Notes under the pieces: generated by a model
The model's input: the letters and a program-made list of their open reading frames with translations, nothing else
What the model was told of the DNA's origin: nothing
Database searches by the model: none
Shown: positions 9,981 through 18,116 of the stretch, one piece after another
How the letters are laid out: each line of letters starts with the position of its first letter
Position numbering within the stretch: the first letter of the stretch is position 1
Assembly: GCA_965219955.1 (NCBI GenBank)
Contig: OZ244799.1
Coordinates: forward strand, 2,624,001-2,688,000
Length of the DNA stretch: 64,000 nucleotides
Direction of reading: 5' to 3'
Source: a bacterium
GTDB lineage: Bacteria; UBA8248
Position numbers and translations under genes: made by a program

Positions 9981-10673
9981 TGACAAAAAAGTTGAGGCCC
10001 CATGGATTACGGTACAAGGCTTTGTAGATGGATACACAAGCTATTTAATTGTACGCACTTCCCGGTTCGGTTGCGGGGTCGTTTTACGTCAACAAGCTGA
10101 CCGCGTCCGGAGGAGGCGTTGTCTTCATCGGGGCGTTCGGGGCGCACAGATAACAGGGCAGTACACCTATAAGGAGAGCAAATTAATAAAGGGGATTGCC
10201 CGTTGGTTGCTTCCCTCGTGCTAGAGCAAACTGTATCGTTCCTTGCTATGAGTTTGAGTCCTCGATCAGGTAGCGGGAACAATGGGCAGCCCCTGCTTGC
10301 GTTTCAGGCAAGCTGGCCGACACCCTGCCGCAGCTGGCACTTTACCTTGTGGATTGTGTCGCAGCAATTCCCGTCTTTCGCCAGCCCTGTAAGGGGTGTC
10401 GGCCTTTTTTTTTGCCCGACCCAGACGCGCTCGCAACGAAAAATGTTCTTCAACCCGGACAGCCCTTCAGAAGCGGCATTGATAACCCCCATCAGACCAC
10501 GACCGAATATATATTGCGTCAGGCGAAGCCCTGGAGAGGAAATGGTATGGACGCCTTCCCGGCAACCGAGTGCCGCGGTTCGAGAGGGTCGACATGGATC
10601 CTCGATGATCTGTGGCACCCTGAGAAGCTCAAGGGGAAGACATAGTGTCTTCCCAGGCCAACCGGAGGGTCCA

Positions 10674-11702
10674 ATGATGAAGAATGGCAGAACGGTCGTC
10701 GGTGTGGATACGGCGAAAAGCGTGTTCCAGTTGTACTGGGTCGAGGTGGAGACGGGAAAAAGGATGTCCCTGAAGCTGACGCGGGCGAGGTTCCTCGAGC
10801 ACTTCGCCAATCGCGCTCCGTGCCTGATCGCGATGGAGGCGTACGGCGGCTCGCAGCACTGGGCGCGTCGTCTGCGGAAACTGGGCCACGAGGCGAGGTT
10901 GCTTCCGGCGAAGATGGTGAGGCCCTTCGTTGCCGGCAACAAGAATGATTCGCACGACGCGCGCGTGATCTGGACGGCGGTGCAACAGCCTGGGGTAAAG
11001 GCGGTTGCGATCAAGAGCGAGGAACAGCAGGCCGTCCTGGCGCTGCACCGCATGCGCCAGCAGCTGGTGAAGTTCCGCACGGCCCAGATCAACGGCTTGC
11101 GCGGCCTGTTGACCGAATACGGAGAGGTCATGCCACAAGGCCGGGCGGGCATGCGGCGAGACATGGTCGCAGCCCTCGGCCGGATATCGGAGCGACTGCC
11201 GACGATGGTCGTGGACGCCCTGCGAGAGCAATGGGCGCGCGTGGCCCGGCTCGACGAGGAGGTTCGCGGTATCGAGCGCCGCCTGAAGCTGTGGCATCAA
11301 GACAACGCCGAGAGCCGCAGGGTGGCGGAGATCCCCGGTGTCGGTTTGCCGGGCGCGACCGCTTTGGTGGCCGCGATGGGTGATCCCGCCGCGTTCAGTT
11401 CCGGTCGGGAGTTCGCCGCCTAGCTGGGGCTGACGCCCCGCCATGTCGGGACCGGCGGAAAGGTGCGCGTGCTCGGAATCTCCAAGCGGGGCGACAGGTA
11501 CCTGCGCACCTTGCTGATACACGGCGCCCGCGCCGCAATCGTCCACGGCAAGGCGCCGCGTGAATGGGTGTTGCGCCTGGCCGGACGGCGGCCCCCGAAC
11601 GTGGTCGTCGTCGCCCTGGCGAACAAGATGGCGCGCACGATCCGGGCCCTGCTGGCCCATGACCGGGAATACCAACGAAACTTTGTCGGCCATCCTGCGT
11701 AA
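10674..11702 (+). pseudogene. IS110/IS1111 recombinase with premature TAG
   Basis: VGVDTAK, MEA, KND..DA (DEDD) motifs; REFAA*LGLTP where W is expected (TAG 11421-11423); frame continues ISKRGDRYLR..VALANK. Confidence 0.9.
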
Positions 11703-11965: not shown

Positions 11966-13110
11966 CCGGGAAGGCGTCCATATAAAGGATGCCATGACCT
12001 GAAACCTCTCGTAGCGACCCGGCGGGTTCGACCCCCGCCCGGCAAAGGCCGAGCCGGCCAGCCGGAAGCGAGTCTTGCATGGCGTGCGGCAACGCGCGTC
12101 GTGAAGCGTAGACAGCAGGTGACGAAGCGGCGGGGTAAGCCTCGAAATCGGTCAATCGACGACGCCTTCATTGTTAATCGTGTGGGGGCAGCACCGGAAG
12201 CGCCGCTATCGGCGAGGCGCAACGGGTTGTCCGGGGTCGTGGACCGGCGCAAAGTCACGGGACGGGTCGCCAGGGAACCTGGGAGATCCTGCACTTGCCC
12301 GTGGGCAAGGATGCTGGGAAGGGGATGCCAGCATGCAAATCCAGAACCCGGCCCGTCGCCGGGCCTGTACGGCGGCGGGAGCGCTATATGGCGGACACGA
12401 ACCCCGCAGGCGCCCGCGGAGCCGACCGGCGAAAACAATAAGCCGAAGGACATGCGGGGGCAGGAAGTCGTAGCGCCCTGATAGTACCGCTGAGGGCGGG
12501 GAACCGTGGCCATCGGGACCCGCTGGAGGGAAGCGGGGCGTCATCTGTACAGAGCCACTGATGGGAAACGTTGGAGGAAACCCTGAGTTCCACGAACACG
12601 TACACGAAACAGCAGTGGATAGCCGAACAGGTGAGGGAGCATCCGGAACGGGTGTTCACGTCCCTGCACCACCTCATCGACGGCGAGTGGATGCGCGAAG
12701 CGTATCGCCGCACGCGCAAGGATGGGGCGAGGGGCATCGACGGCGTGAGTGCTGCCGACTACGAGAAGGACCTGGAGGCGAATCTTGACGACCTCCTGAG
12801 CCGGATGAAGTCGGGCCGCTACTTTGCGCCGCCGGTGCGCCGGCGCTACATCCCGAAGGCGGACGGCACGAAACGACCGCTCGGCATTCCGACGTTCGAA
12901 GACAAGGTGGCGCAACGGGCAATCCTGATGCTGCTGGAGCCGATTTACGAGACGGACTTTTTGACGTGCTCGTACGGCTTCCGGCCCGGACGGTCGGCTC
13001 ACGATGCCCTGGACGCACTTCGCACGGGCATCATGGAGCAGCGCCAACGATGGGTGATAGACGCGGATTTGAAAGCGTACTTCGACTCAATCCCGCACAC
13101 CCACCTGCGG

Positions 13111-14889
13111 TCATTCCTCGACCTGCGGATTAAGGACGGCGTCGTAAGGCGCATGATTGACAAATGGCTGAAAGCGGGGGTGCTCGAAGAGGGCACCGTT
13201 CACAGGCCGGTCGCCGGTACTCCTCAAGGTGGGGTCATGACACCCTGAACGCAAAAGGCAACTCTGCTCTCCGGCGCCGCCGTCGTCGGGTTCCGATGGG
13301 ATCGGACTGCCACCGGACGCCCCCGGGATCGGGATGGAATGGCGAATCGTGATCTTCTCCTCACTGACCAGCACCTCCTTGACGAGAAGCCGGACAAGGC
13401 GCTGTTGTTCGCCGGTATCCAGGCTATGGGCGGAGGAGCGAAGCCGCGCCAGGAACCCGCTCAGCGTGTCGGCGAGCCGGAGGTAGGTTTCCCGATCCTT
13501 GACCTGCTCGACAACGGACTGCAGTTCACGATGAAGAGCCTGTTCCTGACGGCGTAGCCCGGGCGTTCTCTCGCGCAGTTCGTCGATGGTGATCAGCTCC
13601 TCCTGATAGGCATTGACCAGGCGGTCGATGCTCTTTCGTGTTCTGATCAACCGGCGCCGCAAGTCGGTCTCGCGCTGCCGGTTGGGGTCGGAGTCGCGGG
13701 CCGCCTCCAGACGCCGATCGATTTCGGCGCCGATCAGCGCCGGATCCTCAAGCAGGCGAACGACTTCGCTCCAGACAACGTCGTCAAGCAGATCCTGGCG
13801 CACCGGCCGATTGTCGCATAGCGGCCCGTTGAGATGCCGCCAGGCGTCGGAGCCCAGGCAGCGGTAATAGTAAATCGTGCGCGCGCTCGTCCGGGTCGAC
13901 GTGCGATACAGGGAATAGCCGCATTTTCGGCACGAGACCAGCCCCTGCACCACGCTGGGCGTCCTGGTCCGGCGCCGCCCGAGGGCCTTGTTCATCTCCA
14001 GCCGCTCTTCGGCCAGGGCAAAGGTCTCCTCGCTGACGACCGCCGGCACCGGAATCTCGATCCATTCCTCGCGCGGTTTCTCGTGACCGCCGGTGGTGGC
14101 GCCGGCCACGCCGCCGCGCAACCGCAAGGGGCGGGTCACGGTTTTTCGCGGCATCTGGCGGGTCTTGCCGAAGCACGCCTTGCCCTTGTACGCCGGGTTG
14201 CGCAGCATCGCCCACACGGTCGAACGCTCCCAGCGTCCGCGCCCGGAGGACGTGGGTACCGCCCGCTCGTTGAGCTTGCGGGTGATCTCGCCAATGCTCA
14301 TGTGGTCATGAGTATAGTAGCGATAGACTTCGCGAACCACCGATGCCTGAGGTTCGAGCACCTCATAGTAGGCATCGCTCTCGGAAGTTTTCTTGTGGTA
14401 GCGGTAGCCATAAGGCGCGCCTCCGAGAACCGCAACTTCACCACACTGCGCACGATGACGCTTGCCGCGACGGGAACGTTCCAGTATCTGTGCGCGCTCG
14501 TATTCCGCGATCATCCCCTGGAACTGGACGAGGAGGTTGTCTTCCGGGGTTTCCATCGACGGCGCGTTCACAAACACGGTCTCAACGCCATGGCGGGCCA
14601 ACTCTTCGATAATCAGCACCTGGTGGGCGTAGCGGCGGCTCAAACGGTCCGGGGCATGGACCACCAATGTATCGAAGCGCCCTTCCGCGGCGAGGTCCCT
14701 GATCCGCTCCAGCCCCGGGCGCTCGAGAACAGCGCCGCTGCAGCCGTCATCCTCGACGAGCATCTCCGGCGCGACGCTGTAGCCGTGGTTCCTGGCGTAT
14801 TCGACCAGCGCCTCGGTCTGGCTCGCGATCGTGCTGCTCTCCCTCTGCTGCTCGCCCGAGACCCGCGCATAAAGGGCTGCGACTTTCAT
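13111..14889 (-). CDS. Large serine recombinase (resolvase + recombinase + zinc ribbon + coiled coil)
   Basis: YARVS catalytic Ser, RPGL, DRLSR, PYGY, NPAYKG, CRKCG..YYRC; ORF reads through the element boundary. Confidence 0.95.
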   Translation of the reverse strand: MKVAALYARVSGEQQRESSTIASQTEALVEYARNHGYSVAPEMLVEDDGCSGAVLERPGLERIRDLAAEGRFDTLVVHAPDRLSRRYAHQVLIIEELARHGVETVFVNAPSMETPEDNLLVQFQGMIAEYERAQILERSRRGKRHRAQCGEVAVLGGAPYGYRYHKKTSESDAYYEVLEPQASVVREVYRYYTHDHMSIGEITRKLNERAVPTSSGRGRWERSTVWAMLRNPAYKGKACFGKTRQMPRKTVTRPLRLRGGVAGATTGGHEKPREEWIEIPVPAVVSEETFALAEERLEMNKALGRRRTRTPSVVQGLVSCRKCGYSLYRTSTRTSARTIYYYRCLGSDAWRHLNGPLCDNRPVRQDLLDDVVWSEVVRLLEDPALIGAEIDRRLEAARDSDPNRQRETDLRRRLIRTRKSIDRLVNAYQEELITIDELRERTPGLRRQEQALHRELQSVVEQVKDRETYLRLADTLSGFLARLRSSAHSLDTGEQQRLVRLLVKEVLVSEEKITIRHSIPIPGASGGSPIPSEPDDGGAGEQSCLLRSGCHDPTLRSTGDRPVNGALFEHPRFQPFVNHAPYDAVLNPQVEE

Positions 14890-15043
14890 TCTCGTCTCCT
14901 ATCTCTCGTCTTCGGGCAGGGATTTTGCAGGCTTGATCGGGAACCAGTATCTCGTAGGCATTCTGGAGCCTGGCTGCGAACAGGCGATCGAAACTGTAAT
15001 CAAGTTCAACGCCGGGCAGCGAACCCGGGCGGCGCGCAGCCAT
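14747..15043 (-). CDS. Small accessory protein of the recombinase element (possible directionality factor)
   Basis: Starts immediately after the upstream gene stop and overlaps the recombinase start; function inferred from position only. Confidence 0.45.
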   Translation of the reverse strand: MAARRPGSLPGVELDYSFDRLFAARLQNAYEILVPDQACKIPARRREIGDENESRSPLCAGLGRAAEGEQHDREPDRGAGRIRQEPRLQRRAGDARRG

Positions 15044-15044
15044 G

Positions 15045-15365
15045 TCAATCCACGTCCGGGAGAAAGCGCCTCAGTGCCCGTGCGACGACGTCCCCGATGG
15101 CCTGGCCGCTGATCCTGGCGTGCGTACGCAGGGCTTGCGCCAACGCGCCCGGAATCTTGATGGTCATGGGAATCCGGGATTCGACCGGCTCGGCCGGACG
15201 GTCCATGGCCAGCGCCTGCTGAACGTAGCGGTAGGACTGCCGCTGCGATACGCCGAAACGCTGCGATAGCCGCACTACAGCCTCGTTCGTCGTGACGCCC
15301 TGTGCGAGCAGCGAGTAGGCGGCGTTGATCCGTTCGGCTTTCTGGGACTTCGATGATCGCGTCAT
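15045..15365 (-). CDS. Small DNA-binding protein (HTH-like plus RHH-like)
   Basis: LSQRFGVSQRQSYRYV HTH-like; MTIKIPGAL..L...A..SG..IGDVVARAL RHH-like. Confidence 0.7.
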   Translation of the reverse strand: MTRSSKSQKAERINAAYSLLAQGVTTNEAVVRLSQRFGVSQRQSYRYVQQALAMDRPAEPVESRIPMTIKIPGALAQALRTHARISGQAIGDVVARALRRFLPDVD

Positions 15366-15373
15366 TTGACATA

Positions 15374-15402
15374 ATAATATTACCTCTTGAGACGAAGATC
15401 AA
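15374..15402 (-). promoter_or_regulatory. Sigma70-like promoter of the recombinase element
   Basis: TTGATC-N17-TATTAT on minus strand, 8 nt before ATG 15365 (near-leaderless). Confidence 0.55.
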
Positions 15403-18116
15403 GTACCGAGCGATCCCGCCACGCCACAATCTGGCGCTCAAACTGGAAGTTGCCTTTTGCGTTCGGGGTGTCATCTCGCCGATGCTCTCGAACATCTTCC
15501 TGCACCATGTGCTGGACAAGTGGTTCGAGGAATTGGCGAAGCCGCGTCTTAACGGACGGTGCCAACTGGTGCGATACGCCGATGACTTTGTCATCGCCTT
15601 CGAAGACCGCCACAGCGGCAAGCGATTGCTTGACGTGCTGGGCAAACGTCTGGGCCGATACGGACTCACGCTCCATGAGGCCAAGACGCGCTATGTGGAC
15701 TTCCGCCGGAGGCGTCCCTACGGGCGTCACTGGATGGCGTCGGCCACGACGTTCGACTTCCTCGGCTTCACCCACGTCTGGGGGCGGTCGATGCAAGGCA
15801 AGGACGTCGTTCGCCAAATCACGGCGAAAGGCCGCTTCGCCCGCGCGCTGAAATCGGTGCACGAGTGGTGCAAGAGACATCGGCACCTGCCGGTCAAGGC
15901 GCAGCATGACTATCTCGTCCGGGTGATACGAGGCCACTGCGCATATTACGGTCTGACAGGGAACGGCAAGCGTCTTCGGTGGTTCCGCTACCAAGTGGCT
16001 CGCACGTGGCGGAAGTGGCTTGCGCGCCGCAGCCGCCTGCGCCGGATGAACTGGGACCGGATGAACGCGCTTCTCTTGCGATACCCCCTTCCATTTGTCT
16101 CGTACGTGCGTTCTCGGCAAAGCTCCTTGAGCGAACCTGTCAGGTGAGGAACCGAGTGCGTCAGTCGCGCACGCTCGGCTCTGTGGGGGGCGGGGCGCAG
16201 CAATGCCCCCGCCTACCCGTAACCATTCGGCGGCAGGGTGATGGTTTGCGCGTAGCTCATCGCGGATAATCGAAGAGATTCCCCTGAAGGGCTGGTAACA
16301 CGATCCGGCATGTGGTAATCATGTCGGCATGAAGATCTGCACGGAAGCTGTTCAGGCGGAAGTTTCGTTGGCCGAGAGGCCGGATGAGCGATGGCCTCAT
16401 TCCCCCGGGTTGCCCGCAACCGCAGAGGCCTACTGGCGTTCGCTGTACGAGCGAGAACGTGCGCGCGCGGAGTCTGCGGAGGCGCGCTGTGAGGAGTTGC
16501 GGCTCAAGGAGGTGGATTCGCGTGCGCGGGCGGGTTCGCTGAAGTGGTGTCTCGACAACTGCCGGATGAAGCTAGCCGCGAGGGTCGGGAAGTTGAAGGA
16601 AGTCCGCCGCGCGGCGAAGAAGGACGTCGAGGCGCTCGAGGCGGAAGTGGCTCGTCTGGAGAAGCAGCTTCGCAAAGCGGGAGTGGAGCCGGGCAAGCCC
16701 GGCCCGATCGAGTCGCTGCGCAAGGAAGCCGCCCGGCTGCGCAAGGAGGTCACCCGGTTGAACAAGGCTCTCTCGGGCGCGCTGCCTGAGAAGGAGGCCG
16801 CGCGGCTGCGCCGGGCCGTGGAGAAGCGGGAGAAGACGCTTGAGTCACTGCGCAAGGAGCTTGAGGGGCGGGAGAAGGATGTGGCCCGGCTGGAGGATCA
16901 ACTGGCCTGGGAGAAGATGGAGACGGCGGATCACAAGAAGACGATTCAGTATCGTGAAGAGGAGCTAATCCGGCTCTACGGGAAGTTGCGGGAATTGCGC
17001 GACGAGTTGCGTGTCTCGCTCCGGGCCGCGGGCAGAGTGAAGGAGGGGCTGAAGGAGCGGCTGTTGCGCGCGAAGGAGGCGTTGCGCACGAGGTCGTCTC
17101 GTCGGGACGCGGAACTTCGCAAGGCCCTGGGGAGGTCGCGGCGCCAGAAGACGGCGATCGGGTCGCTGTCGAGGGAGAACGGGCGGTTGCGCCGTGCGCT
17201 GCGCAAGTCGGAGGCCCGCCGTGCGCGTCTGGAGGCCGAGCTCGCGAAGCTTCGCGCGACCGGAGCGGTGCTGGCGAGGAGGCTGTTCGGGCGCAGGAGC
17301 GAGCGGCAGGAGAGGCCGCGCACCGGGCGAAGGCGCGGCGGACAGCCCGGCGCCCGGGGCCATGGCCGCACCCCGCGGCCCGCGCTCGATGAGAGGACGG
17401 AAGTCCGCAACCCGCCGGCCGGTGCGCGCGTCTGCGCCGCTTGCGGGAAGCCCTACGCGGCGAACGGCGCCCGTGTGTCGCGCATCGTCGAGATCGAAGT
17501 CTCGGCGTACAGGCGCGTCATCCACCGTACGAGGTGGCGCCGGGGGTGCGGTTGCGCGTCCTCGCCCACCGAGGTGTCGGCGCCGCCCGCGCCGCGCCTG
17601 TTCGCGGGCACGGCTTACGGGACGAGCGTGTGGGCGCGCCTGCTGTTCGAACGCTACGCCTGCTTCCGCCCGCTCAACCGGGTCGCCGCGTGGTTGTCGG
17701 ACCAGGGGCTTCCGATCTCGGCGGGGACGCTGGGCGACAGCGCGCACCGGTTCATGCCGCTGTTCGAACCGCTGAACGGGGCGATCCTCGCCCGCCAGAA
17801 CGAGGCGTCGGTGCGCCACGGGGACGAAACGACCTGGCGCGTTCAGTCGCTTCGCGAGCAAGGACGCTCGAACCGCGCCTGGCTGTGGGCCTCGCTGAGC
17901 GCAGACTCCGTCTACTTCCACGTCGACCCCTCGCGGTCTGCTGAGGTCGCGATGAAGCTCTTCGGCGCGGCCGGCTCCCATACGGTACTCGTCTGCGACC
18001 GCTACAGCGCCTACAAGAAGCTGGCGCGCAGGCCCGAGAGGAACTGGCCGCCCTGCCGGCGCAGGCGCGCGAGGGCAAGGCGCTTCGCTCGCTGCTGAAC
18101 CACCGCGAGGGGCTGA

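Follow-up and report, generated by a model that had tools for sequence, protein, structure and literature searches.

What kind of mobile DNA settles inside the reverse transcriptase (RT) gene of a group II intron, and why exactly there? The question is raised by a bacterial locus (GTDB lineage UBA8248; assembly GCA_965219955.1) in the 64,000-nucleotide stretch from position 2,624,001 to 2,688,000 of contig OZ244799.1, referred to here as the window, in whose coordinates positions are given. An element of 2,238 bp (13237-15474) interrupts there a group II intron RT gene between the codons for PQGGV and ISP. Results of our analysis indicate that this is very probably a compact, insertion sequence (IS)-like element of about 2.24 kb, which encodes a large serine recombinase (LSR), uses the RT block of group II introns as its attachment site attB, enters this site in either orientation and splits the RT. 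The element is a parasite of another selfish element.

Structure of the element and of the interrupted gene

A search for repeats in the region 13100-15600 revealed a single long inverted repeat, whose arms (13237-13263 and 15448-15474) are 27 nt each, are 96% complementary with one mismatch and lie 2,184 nt apart. They are the terminal repeats of the element and its predicted attP arms, the left one on the side of the recombinase gene and the right one on the side of the gene for a helix-turn-helix/ribbon-helix-helix (HTH/RHH) protein. With the junction marked by a slash, the left end reads GGT GGG GTC AT/GACACC and the right one GGTGTC AT/C TCG CCG; the dinucleotide AT is present at both (13237-13238 and 15473-15474), the former being the probable crossover dinucleotide and the latter the second copy of the core. 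A preliminary description of the locus, made from the nucleotide letters, had proposed that the RT is cut at GGT GGG GTC AT/C TCG CCG with AT at both junctions and that the repeats differ by one mismatch, and both proposals agree with the sequence and with the repeat search.

The N-terminal half of the RT (12571-13236, plus strand, ending with GTPQGGV) corresponds to positions 1-127 of the 205 positions of the Pfam RVT_1 profile (9.6e-18), and the C-terminal half (15475-16147, plus strand, starting with (I)SPMLSNIFLHH) to positions 124-204 (4.4e-14). This complementary coverage indicates that a single RT domain was cut in two. The reading frame is open for 225 codons upstream of the element and for 224 codons downstream of it, and when the halves are joined from the TTG codon at 12571 they give 222 + 1 + 223 = 446 codons, exactly the 446-aa RT that the preliminary description expected to be restored by removal of the element. 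The region of intron RNA domains I-IV was found at 12029-12246 (plus strand; Rfam RF02005, group-II-D1D4-6, 127.2 bits at a gathering score of 49, E 1.4e-36). Together with RVT_1 on both halves, it identifies the interrupted gene as a group II intron RT open reading frame (ORF) flanked by intron RNA.

The cargo of the element consists of three ORFs, all on the minus strand: the LSR gene (13239-14889, 550 element-encoded residues), a small ORF of 98 aa (14747-15043) and the gene of the HTH/RHH protein of 106 aa (15045-15365). This agrees with the cargo listed in the preliminary description and is supported by Pfam, structure models and the annotation of homologues. Pfam domains are present in the recombinase only. 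All three ORFs and both repeats of the window copy are intact.

Target and host range of the element family

The family was surveyed with one genome per species, which gave at least 564 relatives among at least 600 pattern matches. The best 80 loci were analysed; they contain 81 elements (LSR identity 58-81%), and the counts below refer to them. The loci are spread over Alpha- and Gammaproteobacteria, Binatia, Acidobacteriota, Gemmatimonadota, Spirochaetia and Verrucomicrobiota. Gene order does not vary among them, and neither does the length of about 2.22-2.26 kb. The repeat arm and a 14-nt outer motif are kept in the 80 loci, and in each of these the ends of the inverted repeats coincide with the junction. 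RT coding DNA adjoins 133 of the 146 readable element ends (103 identified by tblastn with the RT halves of the window, 30 by motif only), and the other 13 ends do not adjoin it. Among 66 elements with both ends readable, 46 lie between an N-terminal and a C-terminal RT half, 10 lie between two halves of the same kind (7 N/N, 3 C/C), eight have mixed RT and non-RT flanks, and two lie wholly in other genes. The preliminary description had set as its test that homologues should lie in RT genes split at this codon, and these counts uphold it.

The position of the split is the same throughout. In the 46 elements between two different RT halves, the match to the N-terminal half stops at residue 222 and the match to the C-terminal half begins at residue 1. 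The joined flanks read G[T/V]PQG..[I/V/A/L]SP.L[A/S]N in 44 cases; the remaining two are mis-anchored by one base. The end calls are off by one base or mis-set in loci L017, L019, L024, L029 and L083, of which L017 and L024 were left out of the comparison of crossover registers described below, and the other three stay in the tallies as called. Group II intron RNA was detected by Rfam at the gathering score in 29 of 36 loci scanned, and the D1-D4 regions of the host introns belong to six families (RF01998, RF01999, RF02001, RF02003, RF02005, and RF02012). Since introns of six families are split in this way, the target is the RT block itself, across intron classes and across phyla.

Several copies lie outside RT genes, namely in genes for a CheB/CheR/PAS sensor, for DHDPS, for a permease and for a SpoIIE phosphatase, and the site of one of them (L013) partly resembles the RT site. 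This pattern fits recognition at the level of DNA. In Nitrococcus mobilis Nb-231, a copy 100% identical to an RT-borne one is located at the 5' side of a CheB/CheR/PAS/HisKA sensor gene (L059:4-4932), and the gene of a 41%-identical LSR on plasmid 3 of Nitrobacter hamburgensis X14 (L090) also adjoins a gene annotated as chemotaxis protein CheB. Genes of the CheB type may be a secondary target, or the recurrence may be a coincidence. In yet another locus (L008:1430-4960), tblastn pieces indicate that about 3.5 kb are inserted between the first 40 codons of the small ORF and the recombinase gene, an element within an element.

The element is also carried by conjugative and other plasmids of Rhizobium, Bradyrhizobium elkanii USDA 76 and Mesorhizobium (60-65% identity), and by plasmids of Streptomyces and Rhodococcus (49-50% identity), the latter with the same genes, ends and RT flanks. 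The plasmid-borne relatives from Nitrobacter (41%) and Acaryochloris (38%) have neither the HTH/RHH gene nor the small ORF nor RT flanks, which places the boundary of the family between about 41% and 49% identity. Culturable, non-pathogenic carriers include Bradyrhizobium elkanii USDA 76, Mesorhizobium sp. AR02 and Nitrococcus mobilis Nb-231.

Orientation and crossover site

The element occurs in both orientations relative to the RT, 24 times as N>C and 22 times as C<N among the 46 elements between two different RT halves. The attB consensus forms a dyad centred on the two bases that separate the flank from the 10-nt arm, and the joined arms of the element are palindromic about the same two bases; because the two sites share this centre, we place the crossover at the central two bases. 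The junction dinucleotide is equal at both ends in 28 of the 46 pairs (AT 18, GC 4, GT 3, CT 2, TT 1). Work on A118 integrase shows that recombination requires identical core dinucleotides, that polarity is determined by these two bases only, and that symmetric cores lead to both deletion and inversion (PMC3556126). The symmetry of the AT and GC cores therefore accounts for the 1:1 ratio of orientations. The view of the preliminary description that a symmetric AT core allows insertion in either orientation is thus corroborated by the counts, as well as by an inverted copy of the window element in another sample (run X5, see below).

Other registers were compared as well. Identity between the two junctions is found in 27 of 44 pairs at shift 0, in 30 at shift -3 (GT) and in 41 at shift +6 (CC). 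Shift 0 was kept because the two others are off the symmetry centre and reflect the likeness of the attP and attB half-sites, which is an argument and not a proof. In one Pseudomonadales genome with six copies (L020-L024), the 10-nt inner arms at the two ends of each element disagree at 5 of 10 positions. These copies are 98.4-100% identical and lie in several introns despite their unlike arms, so the symmetry of the inner arms is not required.

The recombinase

The recombinase contains the Pfam domains Resolvase (PF00239, 3.3e-34, residues 4-150), Recombinase (DBD1; PF07508, 1.2e-19, residues 181-298) and Zn_ribbon_recom (DBD2; PF13408, 5.2e-09, residues 315-376), and matches the integrases of PHROGs family phrog_95 (5.7e-96). 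Residues Y7, A8, R9, V10 and S11, as well as the zinc-ribbon cysteines C320, C323, C344 and C358, are invariant among 42 homologues. These defining domains and residues place the enzyme in the LSR family, and the presence of S11 and of the four cysteines suggests that the recombinase of the window is an intact enzyme. Its best relative of solved structure is SPbeta integrase (E 5.8e-13), and the catalytic domain of TnpX (2mhc) was matched with E 1.8e-7. Among the thousands of LSRs matched in a search with the protein, the top 120 show 61-95% identity.

Within the element, the recombinase ORF is not closed by a stop codon, a feature on which the preliminary description was silent. It runs through the left repeat and ends at 13111, giving a protein of 592 aa whose C-terminal tail is encoded here by 42 codons of antisense RT. 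The left repeat itself, read on the minus strand, encodes the conserved C-terminal motif of the family, YLLRSG (SCLLRSGCH in the window copy), which is common to the homologues listed. Close homologues are 469-829 aa long, since the ORF ends in whatever flank it meets, and the tails of the best 120 homologues fall into classes that represent antisense or frame-shifted RT. In a circular form with joined ends, the recombinase would, on reading by eye, have a fixed tail of about 28 residues and stop at a TAA codon near the ribosome-binding site of the HTH gene.

Copies within genomes and in public sequencing runs

Near-identical copies in unlike introns are present in records CAVYXX, OY762456 and CAWIIK. 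Copies within one genome are 98.4-100% identical, and global alignment of the flanks of those in different introns gives a likeness of only about 53-62%. In CAVYXX, three copies that are 100% identical lie in three different introns, in both orientations. These sequence comparisons suggest recent movement of elements within genomes. In the six-copy genome mentioned above, the flanks of copies match in inverted order (e.g., L020 2971-4420 vs. L024 4445-2996, 99.7%), and this order, together with the same RT half on both sides of 10 of the 66 elements, fits large inversions between element copies.

Further evidence comes from public runs, in which Logan contigs, an assembly that drops rare forms, were aligned to the window. 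Contigs of run X1 cross both junctions as in the window, with no difference. In run X5, two joints (13245/15465 and 13246/15466) connect opposite strands at a depth of about 30 each, with nine shared letters at each joint. A 312-letter contig contains the recombinase-side arm with the C-terminal RT flank, and a 1,936-letter contig the HTH-side arm with the N-terminal RT flank. The arms are thus joined to the opposite RT flanks, and X5, another metagenome, therefore holds the same element at the same site in inverted orientation. A 95%-identical LSR and contigs that are 99-100% identical occur in other samples. The depth is greater on the RT flanks than on the element; as depth sums other organisms, nothing is drawn from it.

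The small ORF and the HTH/RHH protein

The small ORF starts two bases past the stop codon of the 106-aa gene and overlaps the recombinase gene. It is found in the same frame in 71 of 76 elements, and the lengths of the spacers between its neighbours mostly change in threes. The conserved part spans approximately residues 10-40 and contains the motif FDRL..KL..Y..LVP. In the alignment of 57 sequences, F18, D19, R20, L21, K25, L26, Y30 and P35 are near-invariant and L33 is invariant, and the whole stretch of residues 18-35 is nearly so. NCBIfam and PHROGs gave nothing usable for this protein, and Atlas returned unnamed clusters only (0.86-0.87, under the lead level of 0.9).

A complex of the small ORF product with LSR residues 300-535 was modelled with a score of 0.76, compared with 0.01 for the best control; the mark applied was reached by 58 of 80 solved complexes and by 2 of 110 mismatched pairs, which are rough counts, as own alignments were used. 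Three runs share at least 87% of contacts, and the pLDDT of the partner is at least 68. The modelled interface comprises LSR residues 363-397 and 479-521, one strand of the partner pairing with residues 508-521. The recombinase chain, which would include the putative coiled coil inserted in DBD2, has a pLDDT of 81-82, with contacts on residues 379-397 and 479-505. Recombination directionality factors (RDFs) are a functional class with no common sequence family, whose members switch the cognate LSR to attL x attR recombination. Verified RDFs are predicted to bind their LSRs at the DBD2/coiled-coil junction, as described in the available part of PMC12286644, and the modelled contacts lie in that same region. 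The small ORF product is thus a candidate RDF, and on the basis of the model we regard the chances of this assignment as about even.

The HTH/RHH protein has 106 aa in the window and 109 aa in most relatives. Its AlphaFold2 model (pLDDT 89.6) comprises an N-terminal part of three helices (residues 6-21, 26-37, and 41-53), a linker, and helices 73-86 and 90-101. A Foldseek search of the PDB with this model gave no match at E<=0.001; partial likeness was found of the C-terminal part to CopG (1ea4_B, target TM 0.81, 39 columns) and of the N-terminal part to HTH domains. PHROGs matched residues 67-102 weakly to an Arc-like repressor (phrog_6506, E 0.022), NCBIfam matches were also weak only, and homologues are annotated publicly as 'ribbon-helix-helix protein, CopG family'. 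The protein is probably a DNA-binding regulator of the operon.

A promoter-like site (TTGATC, 17 nt, TATTAT; 15374-15402, minus strand) lies inside the right end, upstream of the HTH/RHH gene. It is a consensus match and the sole sigma-70-like one in 13100-15600, where shuffled sequences gave a mean of 0.3. In many loci, a third, looser copy of the 14-nt outer motif (up to three mismatches), about 70 nt inside the HTH-side end, covers the promoter-like site and the ribosome-binding region of the HTH/RHH gene; in the window it falls at 15374-15402. It may be an operator.

Proposed mechanism

The LSR, the small partner protein and the HTH/RHH DNA-binding protein would be the sole machinery of the element. 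Upon excision, the two 27-nt repeats would be joined in a circular intermediate to form a near-palindromic attP of about 54 bp. The LSR would recombine it with attB, that is, the DNA encoding G-T-P-Q-G-G-V-(I/V/L/A)-S-P-x-L-A/S-N, by an exact crossover at the first two bases of the codon that follows GGV, the symmetry centre of both sites. As the core is usually symmetric AT and sometimes GC, the element could enter or flip in either orientation. Insertion splits the intron RT; intron mobility would be lost as long as the element stays in place, and excision would be scarless. The scarless excision and the reversible off-switch for intron mobility envisaged in the preliminary description are inferences.

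A more far-reaching version remains tentative, and we consider it rather doubtful as a whole. According to it, the element would belong to an undescribed, widespread family of obligate hyperparasites of group II introns, which recognise the DNA of the most conserved RT block in all intron classes and phyla concerned. Its naturally symmetric core would let it insert or flip in either orientation, and a mismatch of the first core base would be tolerated. Its own RDF of 40-50 residues would permit the RT to be switched off and on reversibly, its copies would drive large chromosomal inversions between introns, and it would constitute the smallest natural self-contained system of LSR, RDF and att sites.

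Evidence against the proposed mechanism

A number of observations weigh against the reading presented above. First, junction dinucleotides differ in 18 of the 46 pairs, in eight of these as AT vs. GT. Such unequal pairs are not predicted by canonical LSR chemistry; they point to mismatch tolerance, to swaps of flanks between copies, or to a misplaced crossover. Agreement is better at the second core base (39 of 44 pairs) than at the first (29 of 44). If a mismatch of the first base were tolerated and then resolved by replication, the expected outcome would be precisely the observed AT/GT and GT/AT pairs, the alternative being an exchange of flanks between copies.

Secondly, contigs of X5 and X9 join the RT across the site (13233 to 15470) and thereby skip 2,236 bases, which speaks for the proposed reading. 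However, the sides of these empty-site joints are only 25-30 letters long at 90% likeness, and they may derive from paralogous intact introns rather than from excision. A circle junction (15474 to 13237) was absent from the joints listed, on which Logan contigs are uninformative as far as excision is concerned.

Thirdly, only 22 of the 46 host RTs are open on both sides. Many insertions therefore look permanent, and the notion of a reversible switch may hold for recent insertions only. The scan for intron RNA gave no match in seven of the 36 loci, so that some targets may be decayed introns or other RT genes. In the window itself, the intron domains V/VI are represented by a weak match (RF00029, 16147-16222, plus strand, 34.4 bits, E 7.3e-4), which falls short of the gathering score (40). 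The 4.28-Mb genome contains one copy of the element, and tblastn (E<=1e-5) detected no further RT of this kind in it. The idea that introns serve the element as multi-copy safe harbours therefore stands for the family and fails for this genome, with its one RT of the kind. Finally, the complex of the small ORF product with the recombinase is a model, and as a distant integrase-RDF complex (SPbeta, 9dxd) has been solved, its high score may reflect likeness to that structure.

Alternative explanations

The most serious alternative concerns the window copy, which could be an immobile relic of a formerly active family. Its single copy, the want of another target in the genome and of a circle junction among the joints listed are what one would expect of a relic. 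On the other hand, its three ORFs and both repeats are intact, close relatives of its recombinase and almost identical contigs occur in other samples, and the copy in run X5 is inverted in the same site. We consider a relic improbable.

It might also be supposed that the element is a domesticated, gene-interrupting regulator of the skin or fdxN type, kept by the host or by the intron for programmed excision that switches the RT on. The coding sequence is indeed interrupted precisely and in frame, an LSR and a candidate RDF are encoded as in the elements of the skin type, and NCBIfam gives a distant match to XisF (97 bits). This match is, however, far under the cut-off of 375 bits. The occurrence of near-identical copies in a number of unrelated introns within a genome and also outside RT genes, the equal frequency of both orientations, the decay of half of the host RTs and the spread over many phyla and conjugative plasmids speak against domestication, which is quite unlikely.

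Still less probable is a loosely specific, multi-targeting LSR transposon of the TnpX/TndX type that resides in introns only because they are abundant and tolerant sites. The insertions in sensor, DHDPS, permease and phosphatase genes are in its favour, and the criterion of Durrant, more than three target clusters at 50% identity, would assign the element to this class (PMC10083194, available text). Nevertheless, the great majority of readable ends (133 of 146) lie in RT genes, all at the same codons, Pfam detects no DUF4368 domain, and the readable off-target site in L013 keeps part of the RT-site sequence.

The least tenable proposal is that the genes are passive cargo, spread by intron retromobility only and using the recombinase for inversion or resolution: engineered introns tolerate cargo in domain IV, and an intron-plus-element unit is identical over 4,537 bp at two places in one genome (L020, L021), but the same element lies in introns with poorly similar flanks and in both RT orientations, the ends of its inverted repeats coincide with the junction in every locus, and the reading of L020/L021 as retrohoming of an element-bearing intron was rejected as undecidable, two insertions into identical introns looking the same. 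An LSR element that enters the RT block of introns thus remains our preferred reading.

Genomic neighbourhood of the intron

The intron neighbourhood is a nest of mobile elements. Upstream of the intron (10203-11702), an IS110-family transposase is present in two pieces (DEDD_Tnp_IS110, 1.9e-11; Transposase_20 on both ORFs), and downstream of it (16329-18098) an IS66-family transposase is encoded (DDE_Tnp_IS66, 2.7e-28). Elsewhere in the same genome, a second stretch (G000:C1:1950093-1950721; L005) shares 74% identity with the 5' portion of the intron RNA and may be an ORF-less or decayed intron.

Significance

The element represents a new trophic level in bacterial mobile DNA, at which an element moved by a DNA recombinase has its niche in the coding sequence of a retroelement. 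It may limit the spread of introns, and chromosomes may be scrambled through inversions between its copies. A natural LSR with a symmetric core and apparent tolerance of core mismatches bears on the question of how strictly the crossover bases are checked. The integrase, the candidate RDF, the regulator and an attP of about 54 bp fit in 2.2 kb, which may be of interest for compact integrase tools, and the presence of such a system in culturable bacteria makes it directly testable. Current annotation lists the parts of these loci separately, as 'RT domain protein', 'CopG family', 'recombinase family protein' and 'maturase domain protein', and the unit goes unrecognised.

Comparison with known systems

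Searches of the open full-text literature, judged by titles and the beginnings of abstracts, listed no description of a serine-recombinase element in intron RT genes. The main text of the Durrant catalogue does not mention 'reverse transcriptase', although its supplementary target-gene tables could list RVT_1 (PMC10083194), and PMC4853749, as far as its available text goes, deals with the fdxN element and is unrelated.

The phage-type LSRs (A118, Bxb1, phiC31, and SPbeta SprA with its RDF SprB) have the same three-domain enzyme. Short, imperfectly palindromic att sites composed of an inner arm (about 12 bp) and an outer motif, a probable 2-bp crossover, and a small partner protein at the DBD2/coiled-coil junction (predicted in our case) are common to both. 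In contrast to these systems, the element has 2.24 kb without phage or other cargo, its attP derives from terminal inverted repeats in an IS-like manner, it targets the RT of another mobile element, and its LSR gene depends on the flank for a stop codon. Symmetry is a natural property of its core and abolishes polarity, whereas in A118 this loss applies, in the available text, to engineered cores only (PMC3556126). A prophage with a serine integrase was rejected as an identification, since 2,238 bp contain three ORFs and PHROGs found an integrase and weak HTH/RHH matches only.

With Tn4451/Tn5397 (TnpX, TndX) and the DUF4368 clade, the element shares LSR-driven movement of a non-phage element into many sites (PMC10083194). 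The DUF4368 domain is present in 63% of that multi-targeting clade, according to the available text of the same source. The target of our element differs in being one long conserved coding motif and not a short degenerate one, and the element has neither DUF4368 nor resistance or conjugation cargo. Membership in the DUF4368/TndX type was rejected, as Pfam lists three domains only and no DUF4368.

The IS607 family comprises the recognised serine-recombinase insertion sequences, whose TnpA is small, has an N-terminal HTH and is usually accompanied by TnpB. A minimal, IS-sized element moved by a serine recombinase is the shared feature; unlike IS607, the element encodes a 550-aa LSR and no tnpB. 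It was not assigned to this family, as NF033518 gave 37.7 bits at a cut-off of 110 and there is no further ORF in the element. Similarly, NCBIfam scores for CcrB (101 vs. 900), CcrC (77 vs. 900) and XisF (97 vs. 375) led us to reject membership in the SCC/XisF group. As in skin within sigK and in the fdxN element with XisF, an LSR and a directionality factor, which in our element is a candidate, interrupt an ORF that excision could restore (PMC5025042, available text). Those elements are, however, developmental switches of the host at single loci, whereas the present family is multi-copy, crosses phyla, is neutral in orientation and targets a selfish gene.

Tn5053/Tn402 'res hunters', IS1111-attC elements, group IIC-attC introns and twintrons home to other mobile elements. 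Like them, the element uses a conserved sequence of another mobile element as its landing site; unlike them, it employs a serine integrase, and its target is a protein-coding RT motif common to several intron classes. By analogy, the element would work like a phage attP x attB system reduced to the size of an IS, and its choice of target would resemble that of the systems that home to mobile elements.

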